Positions 13,587 to 54,655 of a stretch of DNA of 64,000 bases are shown here, one piece after another. The notes under the pieces are model-generated. The model was not told the DNA's origin and did no database searches. It saw only the letters and a list, made by a program, of their open reading frames with translations. How positions within the stretch are numbered: position 1 is the first letter of the stretch; each line of letters opens with the position of its first letter. The translations under genes and the position numbers were made by a program. Source of the DNA: Fimicolochytrium jonesii (taxonomy: Eukaryota); NCBI RefSeq assembly GCF_025526975.1, contig NW_026515672.1, forward strand, positions 682,001 through 746,000. Reading direction: 5' to 3'.

Positions 13587-16115
13587 TCACTTGCGAACCT
13601 CCACGTTCACATCCCGCGGGGTTCCGGTCCTAATCTGCCACACCTTCACACCATTGCCCAAAAGACTCACACCGCCAAGAGCAGCGACTCCGTTCCAGAC
13701 AATACCGAGCGGGCCACGCACTTTGATGGCCTTGGGCAAACTGTATGCGAACAGACCGGCAGACGCAAGAGCACCGACATCGTAACCGGTGCGGTCATCG
13801 CCAGTCTGAAGAAGGTATCCAGAGCCGGCGAGAGCAGCAGCAAGACCAGTCAACACGAGAGGCGCACGGGAAGCCACGATCGGGCCCGCTGGGGGGCGGG
13901 ACGCCAAGCTGGTGTAGATACCCGCTCCACCGGTGAGGGCCGCGACGACGTAGTGAGGGAAAGGGTCGACCTTGTTTGCGACGCCGGTGAGGGCTCCTGC
14001 GGCCGTCTCGACTTTGGAGGGGTTGGGGTTGCGGACGTCGACGGTAGGGGCGGATTGAGCGATGGAGGAGGTTTGTGTCTGGATGGCGTGCTTCGCGTCG
14101 CTTACGCGTTGCTGGAGAGCGTGCACGGCTTCTTGGGATTTTTGCTGGGCGGCGTGTGCGGCGTCCTCGGTCTTTTGGCGCAGGGTGGACGTGGCAGAAT
14201 GCGCGGCTTGCGATGCGTCATGCTTGAGATTGGCTGCAGAGTTCTGAATGTCGTGGGCGGTCTTGTCGGCTTGAGAAGATGCGGGCGTTGAGCGGTTAAA
14301 TGGCCACCATCCCGAGGAGGAGGTCTGCGCGTTGGTCTCGGCATCGCGCTTGGCGCTTTCAGCAGCGTGCTTGGTAGACTCCCACGCGTTGTCGGCCTTC
14401 CTCTCGCCTTCCCTAACAGCGTCCTTGACGTCCTTCTTTGCGCCCCACCACGTCTTTTCGGCATCCGCCTTGGCTTTCTCAGCAGTGTGCATGGTGGCGT
14501 CCCAAGCGTGCTCAGCCTTCTTCTCGCCCGCCTTCAATGCATCCTGGGCATCCTTCTTTGCACCCCACCAGGTCTTTTCAGCATCGGCCTTCACATGCTC
14601 AGCGGTGTGCTTAGTAGCATCCCAGGCGTTCTCCGCCTTCTTCTCGCCTTCCTTGATGGCATCCTGGGCGGTCTTCTTGGCTCCCCACCATGTGCGTTCA
14701 GCATCGGCCTTGACAGCTTCGGCGGTCTCGCGGGTCTTCTCGTATGCACGGTCACCAGCAATGTCGGCGCGACGGGAGATATCAGCAGCGCCGTCCTCAG
14801 CCTTCGAGACGGTGCTGTCGATGCTACGCCTGGCGTTGTCGATGCCGTCTTTGGCGACATTGGCGGCGTAGGCAGCGGTGTCTTGAGCCTTGGCAGTGAC
14901 GTCATGAGCGACCTTTTCGGTGGTGGCTTTGGCACCCCACCATGTACGCTCCACCTTTTCTTTCACGGCCTCGGCCTTCTGTGCGGTAGCACCCCATGCC
15001 TTCTCCCCGGCGGCGTCAGCTTGGCGAGACAAGGTCGAAGCGGAATCCTCAGCAGCGCGGACGGTGTTGTCGACGGACCTCTTGGCAGTGTTCAGCTTGT
15101 CCTGTGCCACGGCGGAGGCGTAGTTGGCTGTGTCTTGAGCCTTCTTCTCGACGTCGTGAGCGACTTGCTCGGTCTTGGCTTTAGCGCCCCAGAGGGAGTT
15201 CAGGATGGACGATTTGGTCTCTTCCGCCTTGACTTCAGCGGTATGGACGGTGTTTTCCACGGCGTGCTTGGTATCTGCGGCGAGCTGTTTCGCGCGCTCT
15301 TCTGCGGCATGAGCGGCGTCACCAACGACATGCTTCACGTGCACGTACTCGTCCTGCACGCGGTCGACGGCTTCCTCGGCGGCGTGCTGAGTCTTCTCCT
15401 TTGCGCCCCAAAGCGAGCCAAGAAGGGAGTTTCCAGCCTCGTCGGCTTTGCGAGAGATCTCGGCTGCTTTGTCAGAAGCCTTGTCCGTCGTGACCGCCGC
15501 GGTCCTTTTCACGTCCCTCCAGTCTTCCTTAACGACATCGGCGGCTCCGTTGGTCACTTTGCGCGTCTTGTCCGCAACTTCCTTGCCGACCTCTTCAGCT
15601 TTGCTCTTGGCGCCGAACCATGCGGATGTCCATCCTTGCTTTACTTCCTCGGCCTTTTCCTTTGCGGCGGCTGCAGCACTTTTCGCCTTCAGCTCGGCGT
15701 CGGATTCGATGACGGGGTTGCTCGTGCGGTCCTTCTCGTACTGGTAGCCTTCTGCAGGCGCGGCAAAGTTGGTACCAGTGTACTGCTGCTTGATGTCGTG
15801 CTTGACGTTTTCGGCGCGTTGTTTTGCGTAGTGGGCAATGTCTTCGCCGCTCTGCTCAGCGGCGTGCAGCACGTTCTTGCCTGATGTGCGTTGATCAGTT
15901 GCTACATGGGAGACTGAAGCAAATAGCGAGGGATTTGAGTTAGCTTTACTGTTCTTTTTCTTTTCAATATCCGTCGCCAGATCTAGATCTAGAAACATGG
16001 TATTGCATTGCTTACCGTCCTCCGCAGCCTGTTTCGTCTCGTGAGCGGCGTTTTCCGCATGCTGCTTTGCGTTGAAAGCAGGATCCTCAGACTTTCCGCC
16101 GAACCAGTTGACCAT
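13587..16115 (-). CDS. LEA-like helical repeat protein with C-terminal TMEM14-like membrane domain (one intron about 16015-15882)
   Basis: Ala/Lys/Glu/Asp-rich repeats with recurrent WWGAK motifs; hydrophobic C-terminal ~110 aa. Confidence 0.8.
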   Translation of the reverse strand: MVNWFGGKSEDPAFNAKQHAENAAHETKQAAEDGKQCNTMFLDLDLATDIEKKKNSKANSNPSLFASVSHVATDQRTSGKNVLHAAEQSGEDIAHYAKQRAENVKHDIKQQYTGTNFAAPAEGYQYEKDRTSNPVIESDAELKAKSAAAAAKEKAEEVKQGWTSAWFGAKSKAEEVGKEVADKTRKVTNGAADVVKEDWRDVKRTAAVTTDKASDKAAEISRKADEAGNSLLGSLWGAKEKTQHAAEEAVDRVQDEYVHVKHVVGDAAHAAEERAKQLAADTKHAVENTVHTAEVKAEETKSSILNSLWGAKAKTEQVAHDVEKKAQDTANYASAVAQDKLNTAKRSVDNTVRAAEDSASTLSRQADAAGEKAWGATAQKAEAVKEKVERTWWGAKATTEKVAHDVTAKAQDTAAYAANVAKDGIDNARRSIDSTVSKAEDGAADISRRADIAGDRAYEKTRETAEAVKADAERTWWGAKKTAQDAIKEGEKKAENAWDATKHTAEHVKADAEKTWWGAKKDAQDALKAGEKKAEHAWDATMHTAEKAKADAEKTWWGAKKDVKDAVREGERKADNAWESTKHAAESAKRDAETNAQTSSSGWWPFNRSTPASSQADKTAHDIQNSAANLKHDASQAAHSATSTLRQKTEDAAHAAQQKSQEAVHALQQRVSDAKHAIQTQTSSIAQSAPTVDVRNPNPSKVETAAGALTGVANKVDPFPHYVVAALTGGAGIYTSLASRPPAGPIVASRAPLVLTGLAAALAGSGYLLQTGDDRTGYDVGALASAGLFAYSLPKAIKVRGPLGIVWNGVAALGGVSLLGNGVKVWQIRTGTPRDVNVEVRK

Positions 16116-16822
16116 TGTGGTATAGGGTGATTTTGCAGTGTTGTCGAGGTGTGTGGGATGGAATTTGATGGGGTCCTCCGGAGGGTATCAAAAATTGGAG
16201 AACGCTGGTGGATAGCTGGATTCGAGGATGAGGATTGGTATTCTTTTTCTGGACAGGCTGGACATGGGAGGGGCGTTGGACGAAGGCCTCTGAATAAATA
16301 GCCTCGTCCAGGAGGCGTTGGGGGTCGGTCATCCGTCTGATTCCGCCATACGTCACACCCAGCAATAACGGCACAACGCGTCATTTGCCCCACCAGCCGT
16401 GCCAATGCTGGCCGGCCTGCGCGGAGGAATCATGCATGACCTGCCAGTAGTAAGTACTGTGTGCATTGCAAGGAGCCCCACGGACAAGGGCTGGGTGTGG
16501 GTCCATCTGGCAGTGAACGCCCGTGCAATGCGAGTGTGTGCAAAGCGAGAAGCGAGAAAGCGAGGGCCAAGCCACGTCATGACATCATGCCTCTGTCCAA
16601 GGGATGCTACTATCATAGGGCTGCGCACTTGGGGGCTTGGCACTGGGCACTCCCACCAGGAACTCATTAGATACAGCACTTCGCTCTCACCTAGTAACCA
16701 GATATATATAGGAACCCTATTCGCACGTCCGGTCTCTCATCCCGCCTCGATAGCGCTGCTTTCACTAGTTGATACGAATACACTACTATCGAACGAATCC
16801 CTCAGGATCGTCTACCACCGAT

Positions 16823-45629: not shown

Positions 45630-47445
45630 CTACTGATCCTTCTTCACAAACTCCTCTCGTCGCTCAAAAGCGATGTAGCTGGGCTTCTTCGGCATAACAA
45701 TCAAGCACGTGAAATCCATCGGTGGGAAGATGTTTTTCCCCTCGGCATCCTTCATCAGCTGATGCCTGAATTCCCTCACAAACAGCGCAATGATAGTCTT
45801 GATCTGCACATACGCAAACGCTTCGCCAATACACCTGTGCCTTCCTGCACCGAAGGGTAAGAAGTTGGACCGCGCCGATTTTTGCGCAATGTCCACGCCG
45901 TTGATCGTCCACTCTGCTGATCCTTCATCCGCAGACGCGGTGAACCTCGTTGGGTCGAACTTCTCGGGGTCAGGGAAGCGAGCGGGGTCCATTTGCGAGA
46001 CGGCAGGGGAACCGGCGATGAAGTGACCGGCGGGGATGGTGTAGCCTTTGTACTTCACGTCCCGCATGACGAGGCGCATGATGGTGTGGATTGGCGGGTG
46101 CAGTCGCAGGGATTCCTTCATCACGCCGTCGAGGTAGGTGAACTTGCGGAGCTCCTCGTAGGTGAAGTCGGGGAGTTCGTGTGGTGGGGTGTCGGGTTTT
46201 CCAGTCAGGACTTCCGATTGCTCCTTGAGAATCTCATCACTGAAAAAAGTAAGAGTCAATACTCCGACTCAGCTCCATAGCAACCTACATTCATCTACAG
46301 ATGGAGCGGAACTCACATGACATGCGGGTTGTTGGCAAGTTCGAAGATGATCCACGACACAGTGGTAGAACTAGTGTGTTGACCAGCCATCAACGCAGCA
46401 ATCAGCATGTGTGCAATGGCCTTGTCCGACATTTTGGTTCCATCACGGTAGACACCCTCCATCAAAGACTGCAAAATGTCCTTGTTCTCAAAGTCCTCTC
46501 TCTTTCGGCGCTCCTGCAGGATCTTCAAGAACGTCTCGGTCATGATCTTGTTGGCACGATCACGGGCAAAGTACGCCGGCAGAGGCAACCATTTGAAGAA
46601 CACGTTGATCGGCTGGAAGCCTTGGTCGAGGTCGTGGTATAGTTTCGCGACGTTCGAATGCAGCTGCTGTCGGATCTCCTTTCCGAGGAGACAGTGTGAT
46701 GCTGTTCGGATGGTCAGCTCAGCCATATCCGGGAAGAGCTCGTGTTGCGCAGACTTGTTGGGCCACTCCTTGAAGAAGGCGCGGGTCTCCTCCATGATAA
46801 TGGGGACATATGATTTGAAGGCGTCGGTGGTCAGAGCGTCCTTGATGAACCTGAGACATGGAGAACAGTGATTGGTGAGTACGGAAATTCCACATGTAGC
46901 TACTTAGAACCACCACGCTCATACTTTTTCTGCTGCATGAATACCGCGTTATCGACATCGTAAACCACTTCGTCGCCAAAGACCGGGACGGTAAGCTTGT
47001 CATATGCGCCTTCCGCAGTGGCGTCCGCCAATTTGACGTTGAACAGGAAGTGGTTTCCGTCCGGATTCAACACCGCTGTGATCTTACGGCCCATCATCGT
47101 GAAAGTGAAACAGTCTCCATGCTATTGTGAAAGGGCGTCAATAACAGTCGATGCACGTCAAAGTGAAAATTCCCATATTACCTGCTGCTCCTGCTTTTGT
47201 AAAAACTTGACGGGCTGAACGCCAAACGCTACTGCCTGGCCCAAAATCGGCACAGTGTGCGATACGACGGGTGGGAGGACGCGGTCCTTCTCCTGGCTGT
47301 TGTTCTCACGGCCCGACGACATGACGATGACGAGGAACATGAGAGCAAAGAGTCCGCCATACATGTACAGCTTGTCGTTCGGCATGCTGATCAGCCTCGA
47401 GGTCAGGTCAGACATTGTCTGGTTTAGCGTTATGGCGAAGTCCAT
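45630..47445 (-). CDS. CYP51: Sterol 14-alpha demethylase, multi-exon
   Basis: AYDKLTVPVFG, LYHDLDQGF.PIN, LMAGQHTS, KESLRLHPP, LPFGAGRHRCIGE. Confidence 0.96.
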
Positions 47446-48258
47446 TTTGCCGAGTGGAATGCTTGGGAAACAGCAGGGTGCCAAAGAATGGGACACACGC
47501 ACTATCGGTGGGTGTCGTTGCCGATTGATTCCTACTCTACTCTGAGCTGAGACCACAGCTTTTCACCAAGGGCGAGGGTTGGCAGCCTCCTGCTCGATAT
47601 TTGTAGGGTTTTCATGGCGGTCCAGATACTCCACCTCGTTACTTCATCACACTTTGGGAAAAGTGAGGCCACTCGATAACAGGACCACTGCGCTGAATCA
47701 TCCTACCCTTCCATCACACTCATCCATGTGCGACCTAGTATGCGGTAGATACCAGCCCAAGTCCGGGAAGTCGTGGGAGCTATCTGTTGCAAGTCCGTCT
47801 CACAACTGTGGGTCCTAGTGGCGCCACTTTGCTCTCATCACGCCAGTCCAACTGCTCCGCGCGCAACGCGTTCAAATGCAGGCTGCGCACTCCGTATTCG
47901 CGTATATATATAACGGGAATCAACAGGCTTTCTCCCAAGACTGTACAGTACAGCTATAATAACGTTGGGTTGGAGATTTCTGCTGCGTTGTGGTGAATTT
48001 GAAGATTGCCGGACCTCAGCTCCGTTCCCGTCCCCGACCCCGTCCCCGACCCCGCCCCATCCGCATGCCCGTGTTCGTCCTTGTGCTCGTCCTTGTTCCC
48101 GCTTGGGCTTCGGCTCACCTACCTCGCTCTTCAAGTGGCATCGGTGTAATAAGAGTGTATTGTGGTAAGAGGGCAGGCTGCCATCTAGTAGATATCTAGA
48201 TGCATGTAGCCCTCATTTTTCATTCAACCGCATTACAACCCAACTGCATTACAACCAC

Positions 48259-49064
48259 CTTTACCATTCTCCATTCCAAGTTATGAGTGACCAGTAAAGC
48301 ATGCATAACCTGCATGCGGAAGCTAGCCAGACAGACTCGGAGATGAAAGAACGGTAAGAGCGTCGTACCTGGGAAAAGTGGGGCATCGGCCAAATTCCTT
48401 TTACTGTTCTCCATTCCAAGTTACGTGTGGCTACGCTGGTTGCAGGAATCCCTGCGGTGCATCAGCCAGACGGACTCGGATATGGAAGGACAGTAAAAAC
48501 ATCGGCGGCATAGCAAAGGATGAGCTTTACAATTCTCCATTCCAAGTTATGCGTGGTTGACGATGGCAGAGATATCTGCGCGCGTTGACAGCCAGACGGA
48601 CTCGGATATGAAAGAACTGTAAAGAGACATCCATTGTTGGGCTGCAGTGGCCGCCCTGAGCCTTTACAATTCTCCATTCCAAGTTATGCGTGGCTATGGT
48701 AGTGGCAGGAGAGCCTGCACGCGTATCTATAGCCAGACTGACTCGGATATGAAAGAACTGTAAAAGACCGCGGACGGCAGCTCTTCTTCCCACGAGTGCC
48801 TTTACAGTTCTCCATTCCAAGTTATGTGTAGCTATGCGGACGGCAGAAAAACCTGCGCATGTATCGATAGCCAGACAGACTCGGATATGAAAGAACTGTA
48901 AGATTCGTGGGAAAATTGGGCCTGGGAAAATCGCGTCCCAAGTTGACTATCGGGACGCTTTACCATTCTCCGCTCCAAGTTATGCGTTGTGCCTGGGCTC
49001 CGAGCGTATTCCCAGGAGCGTTGAGGCTGCAAGGCAGAACCCGGATGCGAGAAAACAGTAAAGC
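48259..49064. repeat. Array of six ~100-nt imperfect hairpin units with unique spacers (candidate structured ncRNA cluster)
   Basis: Each unit is TTTAC-NN-TTCTCCATTCCAAGTTA...AGCCAGACNGACTCGGATATGAAAGAAC-N-GTAA; units at about 48261-48357, 48399-48498, 48525-48624, 48663-48764, 48802-48901 and 48957-49064 (degenerate). Confidence 0.9.
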
Positions 49065-49261
49065 CGGCGCACGTCAACGATATCCGATTTTACCATCGCG
49101 AGATGCCCGGCTCGGTTCCAAGAGATGAGCTGAGACTGGACGCTACTGCAAAGCTTTGACGTCCATCCAGCACCACCACAAGCCTTGGGACGACCGAATG
49201 GTACTCGAGTGGTGGGGGCGGGCGAGGTTTGGAGTTTACAGATGAGGCAGGATGGGCGACT

Positions 49262-49271
49262 CCTTTTATAA
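49262..49271 (-). promoter_or_regulatory. Putative TATA box (TATAAAAG) pointing toward the hairpin array
   Basis: ccttttataa reads TTATAAAAGG on the minus strand, in an otherwise GC-rich context. Confidence 0.4.
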
Positions 49272-49826
49272 CCGCAGAGCGAGCTGGCGGGCCAGCTGGG
49301 GGTATGGACGTCCCCCAAGCGACACAGCCGGGCCTGGCACGACGTTGGAAGGCCGAAGAAGAAAGGACCTTGGCAAAGGGCGCGCGCAAAGTGATTGCGA
49401 GCGGAAAGGGGGCGAGAAAAGCACCCCCCCATCCGCTCGCTCTTTCCCCCTTTTCTCCCAGGGCCATATTGCACAGCAGCACAGGCCCGAATTTCAAGTC
49501 TCAAAGAGGCCTAACGCGTTTGTGCTCGGTGACGTGTTCCGGTGGAAGGTCACGTGGACGACACGCTGTCGAATTCTGGTCAGTTTATTTTGGGAGGAAG
49601 TTCCGCCTTGTCGAAGCCCTGCCAACCCATTTATAGCTTGTCCAAATACACAGTCGAAATCTTTGATGTTCGGACATTCATACGTATGAGGCGGAAAGCT
49701 TAGTTGAGATTCTCCATAAAAGTCTGCGTCTCCCCAGGCGCGCCCGCTTCATTATACGAAAAATCCACAACGAATACCTCTGGCATCCTCCTAATCTTCG
49801 TTCAATCAGATTCATATTCCCTCAGC

Positions 49827-50443
49827 ATGTCTCAAAACTGCGGCAAGTGTGAAAAGGCGGTGTACCCCACCGAGAAAATTGAAGCAGCGTCTAAGTGGTA
49901 CCACAAGGTGGCGTAGACTTGCGACGCCTTCCTTAGCCTTCACCAAATGCTGACCGTATTCTCTCGGACACTCTAGGGGTGCTTTAAATGCAGTGACCCA
50001 AATTGCAACATCCAGCTGAATCTGAAGACCTTCAAAGCAGTGAACGATCAAATTTGGTGTCAGAAACACACTCCGCAGCCCAAAGCGACGTCAGTCGCGG
50101 ACTCGGTGTCGGTCCTGCACGCCATGCATGCCCCGAAAAAGACCGCGGAAGGCTTGCACAAGACAACTGTGGGAACTGGTGAAACTCCACAGTACGGGTT
50201 GGACACGCTGCAGACGCAGCATGCCTTGTTGACTCCCGTAAGTTCAAAAGATGATTCACTCCTGTACGAAATCTTACTGACCGTCCTATCACTCGCCAAC
50301 AGAAAAAGTCAATCGAGAATTTGGGAAACATTCAGAAGGGTGATGCCACGACTCCTCGGTCCGCACAAGCCCAACCGAAATCTGCTGATGCTCAGGGCCA
50401 AAATCAGGGCCAGCAGGTTGAGCATGAGGAGATCCAAGTATAG
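49827..50443 (+). CDS. Single LIM-domain protein (LASP/LimE-like), 3 exons
   Basis: CGKCEKAVYPTEKI...WYHK|GCFKC..C...L.LKTF...WCQKHTPQPK. Confidence 0.85.
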
Positions 50444-50792
50444 AGTACCGGTGCAACTAGTCCAGTTCTTTCTATAAACCGCCATAGCTATAGGAGCCTT
50501 TCTTATCAATCGCCCTCATGTCTGTTGCTGTAATACAAATACCCGATTTTTTCGATAGCCGTTTACAATTCTTCCATATCTGGTGTGCACATGAGTTTGG
50601 GAGCGTGGGGGACGTGCCGCGAAGATGTTTGTGGAAAAACGTGCATCGGAAAGATTGCAGATATTGAATGGCACTAAGGGGGATACTTCAAGTGTATGTA
50701 CAAGTAAGAAATGAACAAAACTGATGAATGAAACTATGCGATGCTACTCTGCGGAATATATTTCATCTCTGGGCGATCAGGTAGTCAATCGC

Positions 50793-53781
50793 CTACTTGG
50801 CCTTGGAGGGAATCTCCTTCAATTCCTTGGGATCCTCGCCAAATTGCACGATATATTTGTCATGAGCATGCAAGCGGCTCTGATAATCAGAAACGAGAAG
50901 GTGAAGGTCGGTTCCGCGATCGGCCAAATCCTTGTGGTTGCCGTTGGCCTTGCTGCTGTCACGGTATCGCTGGAACGAGCGCAGAGCGTTGATTGCGAGG
51001 TCGAATCGGGAGCATCCGTTGGCTGTGAGCATCTTGAAGGGGGTGGTGGTGGTGCCTTCTTGGTTGTAACCGTGCTATAGTTCAAACCAGCGCGAGTCAG
51101 TCAATTTACTTCCGAGGGGTCGACATGGAGAGCAACGAACGCACCACAGCGAGACGGCCGGCGATGAGAGGCCGGTCGAAAACAAGCCCACGAACAACGC
51201 CGGGGGTACCGTGGAAATTAAAGATGACCGGCTTGTCGGTGGTGAAGAGAGCGTTGAACTCTTCGTCAGAAAGGGCGTGAGGGTGTCTGCCGGTGGCGCT
51301 GAGGATCATGAGATCTGGCGAATGGGAATCCGAAGATCAGTAGGCGTTCTCGGGTAAGTGTCAAGGCGCTGATGTTCTCCCACTCACCGGTGACGTTGAC
51401 CACACGGACACGCAAGTTGGGAGCGTCAATCTTGAGCATCTCCGCCGCCGCAATAACCTCAAACGTGGTCTCGTTCCCGCATCCAACCAACACAACATCA
51501 GGGTCATTGCCATCATGGCTGCTGTATCGGCGCCAGATAGAAGCACCAGCCTTGCAGTGCGCAATCGCTTCCTAGATGAAAGAAACCGGCTGCATCAGAT
51601 CATATTCGCTCCGCCACCGTATGGCTAGCGAGCCACCCATCATACCTCAGGCTCAAGCCAGAGCGGCATAGGCTGTTTCGAACTGATGATCAGGTTGACG
51701 TAGTTGCGAGACGCAAGGCAGTGGTCGATAGTAGTCAGCAATGTGTTAGAGTCGGGAGGCAGGTAGATGCGGACCATGTTGGTCTTCAAGCCTACGAGCG
51801 CGTCGATGAAGCTCGGGTTTTGGTGGGAGTAGCCTGTTGCATTGACAAATCAGTACGAAGCTAGTGGAAATGCCCTTCTCCCAGCCAGAGCAGTTGCGAG
51901 CACCCACCATTGTGCTCTTGCCTCCACAATGTGGAAGATTCGATGTAGTTCAGAGATCCGATATCTTTCCTCCAGTTGGTTTCACGAGCGACCTTTTGAA
52001 ACTTCGAGTATTGGATCACCATGGTTGTGATGATGGGCAAGAATGCCTCGTAACTTGGAAAGAGCGCCACCCGTCCCGTCAAGGTGTATCCTTGCATCCA
52101 TCCTTGGCACTGATGCTCAGACAGCACTTCAATAACACGCCCGCCCTTGTTGCTGCAGAAAGGGTCCCATTGGAAGTTGCGCGTCGTAGATTTGAAGACG
52201 CCGGAGAGCTTGTTGCTGTCGAGTTCATCAGGAGAGAAGATGCGGAAGGACTTCGGGTTCTTCTCAATGACTTGGGCAAGGTACTCCCCACATGCGTTCA
52301 TGCACGCCTGCCATTCATCCATCTTGACCGTTTGAGGTTTGGTGAGGGGACGGAAGTCGGGCAGATCGAGAGGTTTGTAGCCGGCGTAGGTCTTCTCGTT
52401 GAGTCCCATCATTCTCTCCTTCCTCGGGAACGTCTTCAGGACGTCCTCCACCGGCACGCCATCCTTGAATAGCTCATCAAACTTGTAGCTCTTCAACCAC
52501 GCGTCCAATGCTTTGAACTCCTCGTCATCCGATTTGACTTTGGGCAAAGGCACTTGGTGCGAACGCCAGGTTCCTTCGATTTGATGGCCGTGCACCTCCT
52601 TCGGACCTGTCCAACCCTTGGGAGTACGCAAAATGATCATAGGCCAGCGCGGCTTGACAATGGGGTTGCCTGAGCGTGCGGCTTGCTGTATGCGGCGGAT
52701 TTCTTTGTGTGCCCTTGAATTTTTATTGATGAAGATTAGAATCATCGCTGCTTTGGCAGTCTGCATTGAGTGGATGCACTCACCAGTCCATGGACGCAGC
52801 CATGTCGGCATCAATCACGTCCATGTTCTCAACAATCCGGACTTGGTAGCCATAGCCTGAGAACAATGCGGACAGCTCTTCATCGCTGTTCGAAGAGTCA
52901 GGGTGTCAGTGATACAAACCGGCCACTTGAAGCCTTTCATGTGAGTGAACTTACGACATGGATCCGAAAACTGTGGGCTCGGCGATCTTGTACCCATTAG
53001 CGTTCAAGATGGGAATGACAGCTCCACTTTCCTTAGGGTCGAGGTACTTGTACGAGTGCCACGCGGTCGAGGTTGGTCCGGTCTCGGCCTCACCATCTCC
53101 AACGATGCAGGTCACGATCAAATCCGGGTTGTCGAAAACAGCTCCGAAACTGACTGCGAGTGCGTATCCGAGCTCACCACCTTCGTGGATGGCGCCAGGA
53201 ACCTCCGCGTTGACGTGACTCGGGAAACCTCCCGGCCACGAGAAGCCACGCAGGAGCTCGTAGAGACCCTTGCTAGACGTCGCATACCTCTGGTCAAACT
53301 TTCCCAATGTCCCCTCCAGGTACAAGTTTGCCAAGACGGCAGGTGCGCCGTGACCAGGTCCAGTTACGAGGAACATGTCAAGATCATGTTTGCGGATGAG
53401 ACGGTTGCAGTGCGAGTAGATGAAGGTGATGGCCGGACATGTGCCCCAGTGCCCCAGCAGCCTGTCTTTGATGTGATCTTTCGACAGAGGCTCCTTCAGA
53501 TCTACGTTGTCCTTCAAGAAGATCATGGACGCCGCAAGGTAGTTTGCAGCTCGGCGAGCTTTGCGCATGTTTTCGAAATCCTTCTCATCTTCGGCAGTGA
53601 TCAGCTTTTGGATATCGAGTTGGACAAGCAAATTTTCGGTGTTGAGTGGTGGGGACGTTTTGTTGAAGATCCCTGGCGGGAGAGGGCCAGGGTGGTCGGC
53701 GTCGGTTGATGGTTTGCCCTTACGGGTGGCGTCCTGCGTCTGGTCGTTGGAGCGCGGGGCTTCGGCCGTTGGTGGTGACAT
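50793..53781 (-). CDS. xfp: Xylulose-5-phosphate/fructose-6-phosphate phosphoketolase, multi-exon
   Basis: RLLGHWGTCP, GPGHGAPA, HEGGELGY, GDGEAETGP, LRTPKGWTGP, FSPDELDSN, WRQEHNG. Confidence 0.95.
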
Positions 53782-54655
53782 GTTGAATGTGTATGTTTCG
53801 TGCGTTGACTTTCTCGATCTTATGAACGGCTCCAGAGAAATATGGATGCTATTATATTGTTTGTGCTGCTGTGAGAGGGGCTGGACTGGCGATGCGATGC
53901 TTTCTGTGTAGGAGACCCTTTGGCTACCCCACCATTCATATATCCTATAGATCTGGACCTCATTCCTCCGCACCGAAGTTGCATGACAAGGCACCGCAAA
54001 ACATGAACACCCCATCACGTCACATCCGGGCGTTACATGTTCAAGCCTGCGGCCCGCGTGAAAAATCGAACATCCGTCCCCGTTCACAGAATCACAGACG
54101 CTCCGTCTCGCAGCCAGTGAGGAGAAAGGATTGGTGCATTTGTGACGAGCACTTTGCGTCCCCGACTCCGAAGCGCTCCATACGGAGCAGAGTTCACCAA
54201 CAGAACGTGGCTTTCCCGATGGCTGAATTGTGAATGCGGGCTGCGCACATCCCACACGCGCGAGAATGACATCAGTCCCTCTCTGACTGACAGCGATCGC
54301 CTTATCGGTGCTGCGCCACGACGCTGTCAATCCTCATCGCGCTGTCGATTTTCGCAACGCAGCAGGACCGCTCTCCACCTCGTTAACGACCTCCACTCCC
54401 GTTGACGACCTCTCCCGCCCAATACGATCGCAAGACGCCGTCAAAAGCGTGTCCACAGTTCTTCGAACGTACAGCTTTAACCGGCTGTTTCACGCTATTC
54501 CTTATCTTTCGGACTGTCTCAGCGGGCGGCTGCTGGGAGGAAACCTAGGCAAGCCCATTACCAGCCTGAGCCCAGACTCAACAAAAATATCGAAGTGTAG
54601 TTGCTGTTTTAGTGCAAAAAGCAGAGACCTTCATTTCTGACTTGCACAGCGCAAA

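Follow-up and report, generated by a model that had tools for sequence, protein, structure and literature searches.

In Fimicolochytrium jonesii, a 2.4-kb gap separates a divergent pair of genes, CYP51 on the minus strand and a LIM-like gene on the plus strand. This gap, located in a 64-kb stretch of DNA that was analyzed as a whole (here, the window), harbors an array of six tandem hairpin units, each 98 to 104 nt long, spanning positions 48260 to 49062 (803 nt). The preliminary description counted five units and overlooked a more divergent one at 48959 to 49062, here unit 6, which comes first in a minus-strand transcript and whose arms differ from those of the other units at 15 to 20 of 67 arm positions. 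On the same minus strand follow unit 5 (48801 to 48902), unit 4 (48663 to 48764), unit 3 (48526 to 48623), with arms that differ from those of unit 4 at 2 of 67 positions, unit 2 (48400 to 48497) and, as the last in the transcript, unit 1 (48260 to 48358). The flanks lengthen the base of units 5 and 4, by a 9-bp helix of -15.9 kcal/mol in the former and with -18.8 kcal/mol in the latter. The linkers measure 28 to 56 nt, and the related hairpins all lie on the same strand and less than 1 kb apart. A 17-nt arm motif has six matches in the window against 0.13 expected. A covariance model of the six units, which match it by construction, identified no further copies of the array in the 64-kb window, and a coarse hairpin scan of the whole window (step 40) gave seven hits, of which just three were array windows.

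The downstream neighbor on the minus strand, at 45630 to 47445, encodes a lanosterol 14-alpha-demethylase-like P450 and contains three introns; its last exon shows 100% identity to a F. jonesii protein, and its closest relatives, annotated as lanosterol 14-alpha-demethylase, are from Powellomyces hirtus (78%) and Spizellomyces (73%). On the other side, the LIM-like gene starts at 49828 to 50237 (plus strand), with a split zinc-finger motif that matches Pfam LIM at an E value of 0.032, below the curated cut-off. Pairs of splice signals suggest that each neighbor has an intron in its upstream untranslated region, at 48122 to 47983 (minus) for CYP51 and at 49579 to 49809 (plus) for the LIM-like gene. 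We also observed a GC-rich 16-bp hairpin at 49394 to 49443, between the array and the LIM-like gene, with three weak Rfam miRNA hits (E values of 2.8 to 6.8) at 49394 to 49463. Within the array, the linker between units 5 and 6 carries at 48933 to 48958 a 7-bp hairpin with a seed match at 48938; its center resembles both core arm motifs fused, the apical part being absent, like a collapsed seventh unit. A 15-mer containing TGGGAAAA is found in two linkers (48370 to 48384 and 48908 to 48922) and again in the CYP51 promoter region (47655 to 47669), and may represent a factor binding site or the trace of an older duplication linking units 1 and 5. Elsewhere in the window are an intron-containing phosphoketolase (XFP) gene at 51861 to 54330 (minus), a gene with a poly(ADP-ribose) glycohydrolase catalytic domain at 28316 to 29722 (plus), an open frame of 866 codons at 13587 to 16187 (minus) with an internal 120-nt repeat and no Pfam match, and, at 27109 to 27282, two tandem copies of an 87-nt unit that are 100% identical, possibly an assembly duplication.

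Read on the minus strand from the base upward, each unit forms an 11-bp helix, a 1-base bulge, 4 bp, a second 1-base bulge and 7 bp. A small asymmetric loop separates this part from 3 further bp, above which an invariant C×C mismatch leads into a helix of 5 to 7 bp. The apical region above is variable (31 to 36 nt) and includes a stem-loop of 5 to 7 bp. The lower duplex comprises 22 pairs, and 129 of the 132 cells of the six units pair on the minus strand, 18 of them as G·U; the remaining three cells are A·C. The two bulge positions, the C×C mismatch and one G·U pair are kept in all six units. Mean identity is 84% in the 5' arm and 92% in the 3' arm, against 24% and 30% in the flanks, and this contrast between conserved arms and diverged flanks is a stronger signal than the pairing changes stressed in the preliminary description. 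The upper helix (GUCUGGCU) is 83% identical, which is more conservation than a basal guide would need; the units may therefore be cut in a different register or serve to bind a protein. Each unit folds stably into one hairpin whose duplex is unbranched and has few unpaired bases, as is asked of miRNA or fungal milRNA precursors, with folding z-scores of -3.7 to -6.7 for all units on either strand (-5.1 to -6.7 on the minus strand alone) and MFEI values of -0.75 to -0.98.

The proposal that selection acts on the structure, made from compensatory changes in the stems, is supported by the derived pair states and by the flanks. In a named structure of 35 pairs, seven pairs had changed on both sides among the six units, and the two clearest compensatory pairs, A-U to G-C and U-A to C-G, are held by unit 6. 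Distinct derived pair states still paired on the minus strand numbered 16 of 23, against 4.2 to 8.9 expected from random single changes, the 23 states being non-independent events. The covariation score was 0.225, compared with 0.141 ± 0.018 after shuffling (0 of 500 as high) and 0.03 to 0.082 with slid partners, on a comparison of only six paralogues in which related sequences can exceed the null without structure. As for the individual stems, all five basal strings quoted in support of covariation are present in the sequence. The five apical strings are likewise present, although covariation there is weaker than claimed, with one of five pairs in a MAFFT alignment; the quoted middle-stem strings occur in units 2, 3 and 4 and not in units 1 (TGACC) and 5 (TAGCT), where this stem is mismatched on the plus strand and paired through G·U on the minus strand.

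The linkers have no clear homology to one another, and the pairing of each 5' flank with its own 3' flank was compared with its pairing with those of other units over 720 permutations. The unrelated flanks pair with their own partner: judged by duplex energy, the true arrangement ranked 5 to 7 of 720 on the minus strand and 7 to 23 of 720 on the plus strand, and judged in context it ranked 3 and 11 of 720, respectively, with the signal coming mostly from units 4 and 5. The apical halves, permuted in the same manner, ranked 13 of 720 on the minus strand and 3 of 720 on the plus strand. Overall, we regard the array as a real, selected RNA hairpin array without a known family.

Several observations bear on which strand is transcribed. 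The consensus fold reached -34.8 kcal/mol with 37 pairs and a structure conservation index (SCI) of 0.71 on the minus strand, compared with -20.0 to -20.7 kcal/mol, 29 pairs and 0.47 on the plus strand. The z-score is better on the minus strand in all six units; the raw minimum free energy is better on the plus strand in units 2 and 3. On the minus strand, G·U is the majority state in three columns and A·C in none. A TATA-box consensus, TATAAAAG, lies on the minus strand at 49263 to 49270, 208 nt upstream of unit 6, and is a candidate promoter of the cluster; TATAWAWR has 12 matches in the whole window, this one included. Upstream of the array on the plus strand there is a (TA)n TATA-like site at 47903, and ApT density gave no usable start-site signal. 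The plus strand also carries a possible intron of approximately 1.0 kb (48165 to 49170) that would enclose the six units; its candidate 5' splice site (TG/GTAAGA at 48165) precedes unit 1 by 95 nt, and its candidate branch point and 3' splice site (TTGAC...CAG at 49156 to 49170) lie 108 nt past unit 6. Given background densities of comparable sites of approximately 1.5 (5') and 1.7 (3') per kb, the chance of such a bracket is estimated at about 0.04 to 0.05, and we estimate a similar chance for the minus-strand TATA box. The stronger fold is on the strand opposite to this possible intron. Taken together, the array is quite probably transcribed from the minus strand. The earlier view that the wobbles leave the strand unsettled was thus too cautious overall, since the G·U pairs and the consensus fold favor the minus strand; it holds for the variable pair states alone, which barely separate the strands (16 of 23 paired on the minus strand and 14 of 23 on the plus strand).

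Searches for known families and homologues were negative within their scope. Rfam gave nothing on the array and no match at gathering score across the 64-kb window, and ARAGORN detected no tRNA. Among the 12 unit-strand combinations, box C and box H were each found in 0 of 12, and ACA in 2 of 12 tails; a cluster of box C/D or H/ACA snoRNAs was rejected on the absence of the boxes and of any Rfam match. SECIS, IRE, Sm snRNA and tRNA-like elements were rejected as well, since no core motif is present in all six units on either strand and ARAGORN returned none. Pattern scans found no match in metagenomes, using a strict pattern that would itself miss unit 6, or in prokaryotes, and the scans of viral sequences gave 0 and 5 hits, the five scoring at most 10.8 bits. 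The array model had no match in 80 CYP51 loci, of which only L001 (53%) and L002 (65%, 35 nt upstream) exceed 50% identity. No orthologous array was found in these collections, which hold almost no close chytrid DNA, and the evidence is therefore that of six paralogues.

The explanation we favor, at roughly even confidence, is that the six hairpins are microRNA-like precursors of a single family arranged in one polycistronic cluster, probably on the minus strand, predicted to be cut by Dicer into one U-starting RNA of approximately 22 nt per 3' arm. The candidate mature small RNA of unit 2 is a 22-nt segment of the 3' arm at 48402 to 48423 (minus strand) with a 5' U, in a register predicted from conservation; its equivalents on the minus strand of the other units lie at 48262 to 48283, 48528 to 48549, 48665 to 48686, 48803 to 48824 and 48961 to 48982. 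This window, starting with UAACUUGGA, has a 5' U in all six units and is invariant at positions 1 to 9, among paralogues only. It has four variable columns (10, 11, 18 and 19), compared with 9 to 11 in every 5'-arm window, and on the sequence this difference between the arms is a putative guide-versus-star asymmetry. Three more 3'-arm windows are equally conserved, with four variable columns each, but begin with A; the chosen register therefore rests partly on the preference of Argonautes for a 5' U. Each candidate guide has one to three unpaired bases, and the gap between the arms of the predicted duplex is approximately 50 nt.

In the proposed pathway, RNA polymerase II would transcribe the cluster from the TATA box at 49270. 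Dicing would then proceed from base to loop, measured from the lower stem of 13 to 18 nt that the flanks of each unit form, and the 3' arm (5'-UAACUUGGA...) would be loaded on Argonaute. Tandem duplication may have served to raise the dose of a single guide. Counted by eye on the folds, the lower stem under the predicted duplex measures 13, 13, 13, 18 and 16 nt in units 1 to 5, near the value of about 15 nt given for plant base-to-loop precursors (PMC3787264). Candidate components of the machinery have been listed for the organism: the best BLAST hits in F. jonesii in Dataset S3 of PMC9926174 include the Dicer-like proteins Fimjon1_183480 and Fimjon1_603683, the Argonaute Fimjon1_159796 and two RdRPs. 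According to PMC12663654, P. hirtus has a canonical Dicer and none was detected in Geranomyces variabilis.

The closest known systems are the homologous polycistronic miRNA clusters of plants, such as rice MIR395 (PMC2812943), where short same-strand clusters of a single miRNA family hold up to eight hairpins. As in those clusters, several hairpins lie on one strand within 1 kb between protein-coding genes, one hairpin appears to have been successively duplicated, one arm window is conserved, loops and linkers have diverged, and the predicted lower stem is near the 15 nt of plant precursors. Unlike rice MIR395, the array belongs to a chytrid, bears no sequence relation to it, is known from sequence alone, has no near-perfect exonic target in the window and possesses an extra conserved upper helix and apical stem-loop. 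With fungal milRNAs (PMC9757828) it shares an intergenic hairpin that matches no Rfam family, in a fungus for which Dicer and Argonaute matches are listed; it differs in its arm gap of approximately 50 nt, since well-supported fungal milRNAs usually have less than 20 nt between the duplex arms, and in its six-copy tandem arrangement. The words "chytrid," "tandem" and "cluster" have no occurrence in the main text of PMC9757828. According to the same source, under half of the reported fungal milRNA loci pass basic tests on re-analysis, so hairpin shape alone is weak evidence, and by its scheme the locus would be placed in tier 3 (needs more evidence). In the literature searched, which excluded most subscription journals, we found no miRNA gene or cluster described in a chytrid and, for fungi at large, no homologous polycistronic milRNA cluster. 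On every feature that a sequence can put to the test, the array behaves as a miRNA cluster, and it is a candidate member of that class.

An alternative, animal-type register can be drawn, with an 11-bp basal stem and a duplex of approximately 22 nt within a stem of approximately 32 to 35 bp, and in this respect the units resemble the Drosha/Pasha pri-miRNAs of animals and ichthyosporeans (PMC6206976). They differ from those in that the 3' product read in this register would vary at three of its first seven positions, and the fungal survey given in PMC6206976 reports no strong Microprocessor (Drosha/Pasha) candidates in fungi.

A ungapped target of the plant type for the candidate guide was absent from the 64-kb window (best penalty, 8). 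With bulges allowed, the best predicted partner in the window is the minus-strand segment at 46848 to 46869, comprising the polypyrimidine tract and 3' splice site of CYP51 intron 2 plus three exon bases. Window-wide, this site ranks first for the guides of unit 2 and units 3/4, tied first for unit 5, third for unit 1 and 57th for unit 6 (five distinct guides). The unit 2 guide pairs with it at -26.0 kcal/mol through bases 2 to 21, with two target bulges and two G·U pairs, and the guide of units 3/4 at -19.9 kcal/mol. On the sense strands of the two neighboring genes, 0 of 758 shuffled guides did as well for unit 2 and 18 of 729 for units 3/4; one of 715 composition-matched natural 22-mers reached -26 kcal/mol, and by energy ratio the unit 2 pairing tops 311 hairpin 22-mers. 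These figures are to be read with the match having been noticed post hoc, starting from a 12-nt match, with a purine-rich guide that favors pyrimidine tracts and with the best variant being present in one unit only. CYP51 pre-mRNA is the only local target candidate predicted, and an intronic site would need nuclear action.

If CYP51 intron 2 were retained, an in-frame stop would follow within nine codons. In the full scenario, which we judge very improbable, the chytrid has evolved a plant-style miRNA cluster, and the guide, by pairing with the 3' splice site of intron 2 in the pre-mRNA of neighboring CYP51, tunes sterol synthesis via splicing or nuclear silencing. An origin of the array by inverted duplication of CYP51 was not supported: the top 60 sites of the 5' arms lack the CYP51 site, and the similarity stops at approximately 22 nt. 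When the array was compared with the window by BLAST, its two best hits (E value of 0.55 each, individually nonsignificant) lay in the two neighboring genes, at 46120 to 46092 (minus; CYP51 ExxR codons, 24 of 29) and 50137 to 50153 (plus; LIM-like gene, 16 of 17). Both are antisense to a minus-strand transcript, an outcome also seen in 2 of 300 shuffles and, among 65 other windows, in one, the same bit score being reached somewhere by 138 of 300 shuffles. Arm-like stretches also occur near the array at 47951 to 47985 (minus) and 50562 to 50580 (plus), as weak guide targets of -11 to -20 kcal/mol. The target-site and antisense matches are leads and not evidence of function.

Turning to explanations other than the microRNA-like cluster, the units may be structured RNA modules that are not diced, serving as a protein-binding scaffold or as stable RNAs of approximately 100 nt, within either a minus-strand long noncoding RNA or the plus-strand intron at 48165 to 49170 of a noncoding or LIM-leader transcript. 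We regard this as possible but rather unlikely. Consistent with it, every unit conserves the upper helix as well as the bulges and the C×C mismatch, and on the plus strand a strong 5' splice site and a branch point with 3' splice site bracket the six units; the intronic version, however, is at odds with the much weaker plus-strand fold, in which three majority G·U pairs become A·C. Against undiced modules in general are the want of a box motif common to the units and the unequal conservation of the arms, as in guide/star duplexes.

An unlikely alternative is that the array is a cis element of a long CYP51 isoform, in which transcription from 49270 through the array and the CYP51 promoter would repress the gene, whether through interference, through poor translation or through a 3' arm that pairs with intron 2. 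The array lies on the same strand as CYP51 and directly upstream of it, the possible minus-strand intron at 48122 to 47983 falls between the two, and the arm is complementary to the intron-2 3' splice site. However, CYP51 is preceded by a TATA-like site of its own at 47912, the arms are locked in hairpins of -34 to -47 kcal/mol compared with -20 to -26 kcal/mol for the target duplex, and interference requires no conserved arm sequence. Long bulged hairpins near a gene are known as fungal cis-regulatory elements in hexA and SDC (PMC5640933), and one shoulder of the hexA hairpin resembles a 3' splice site, as does the pyrimidine-rich arm of the array; those are described as single elements, whereas the array has six copies, lies at least 0.8 kb from the start codon and has no Rfam match.

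Equally doubtful is a repeat at the DNA level, that is, tandem MITE-like or palindromic units kept self-complementary via template switching or conversion without a function in RNA. The unit ends are inverted repeats, and units 3 to 5 end in TA-CAG...(T/C)TG-TA, which we take to be reminiscent of Tc1/mariner ends. Conversion within the palindrome, which the preliminary description had named as a refuting explanation, could have produced both adjacent double changes of unit 6 in a single event. It does not fit the remainder: G·U pairs and bulges, which conversion would erase, persist in all six units alongside the C×C mismatch, and a DNA palindrome is therefore disfavored. For the same reason the terminal inverted repeats are not the near-perfect ones of a MITE, and no dispersed copies of MITE type with a target-site duplication, or other copies of any kind, were found in the 64-kb window. 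Moreover, of the 16 derived states that keep a pair, 9 are one-sided swaps between wobble and Watson-Crick pairs, the linkers pair with their own unit despite their divergence, and folding z-scores are weaker with DNA than with RNA parameters (-2.3 to -5.6 in four of the six units tested). Finally, a repetitive protein- or peptide-coding region is highly improbable: although a stop-free minus-strand frame of 139 codons runs through units 5 and 4 into part of unit 3, and units 4 and 5 each carry a short ATG-to-TAA frame on the plus strand, the frames are interrupted in other units, the variable arm positions have no third-codon bias, and none of four overlapping or adjacent open reading frames has a Pfam match.

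The microRNA-like cluster remains the reading we favor, and its six-copy locus offers a predicted guide, strand, promoter and cut register for direct test. If the array is not diced, it would still represent an unnamed structured RNA family of early-diverging fungi. The locus bears on whether fungi possess true miRNA genes under selection, and on whether miRNAs arose once or repeatedly.
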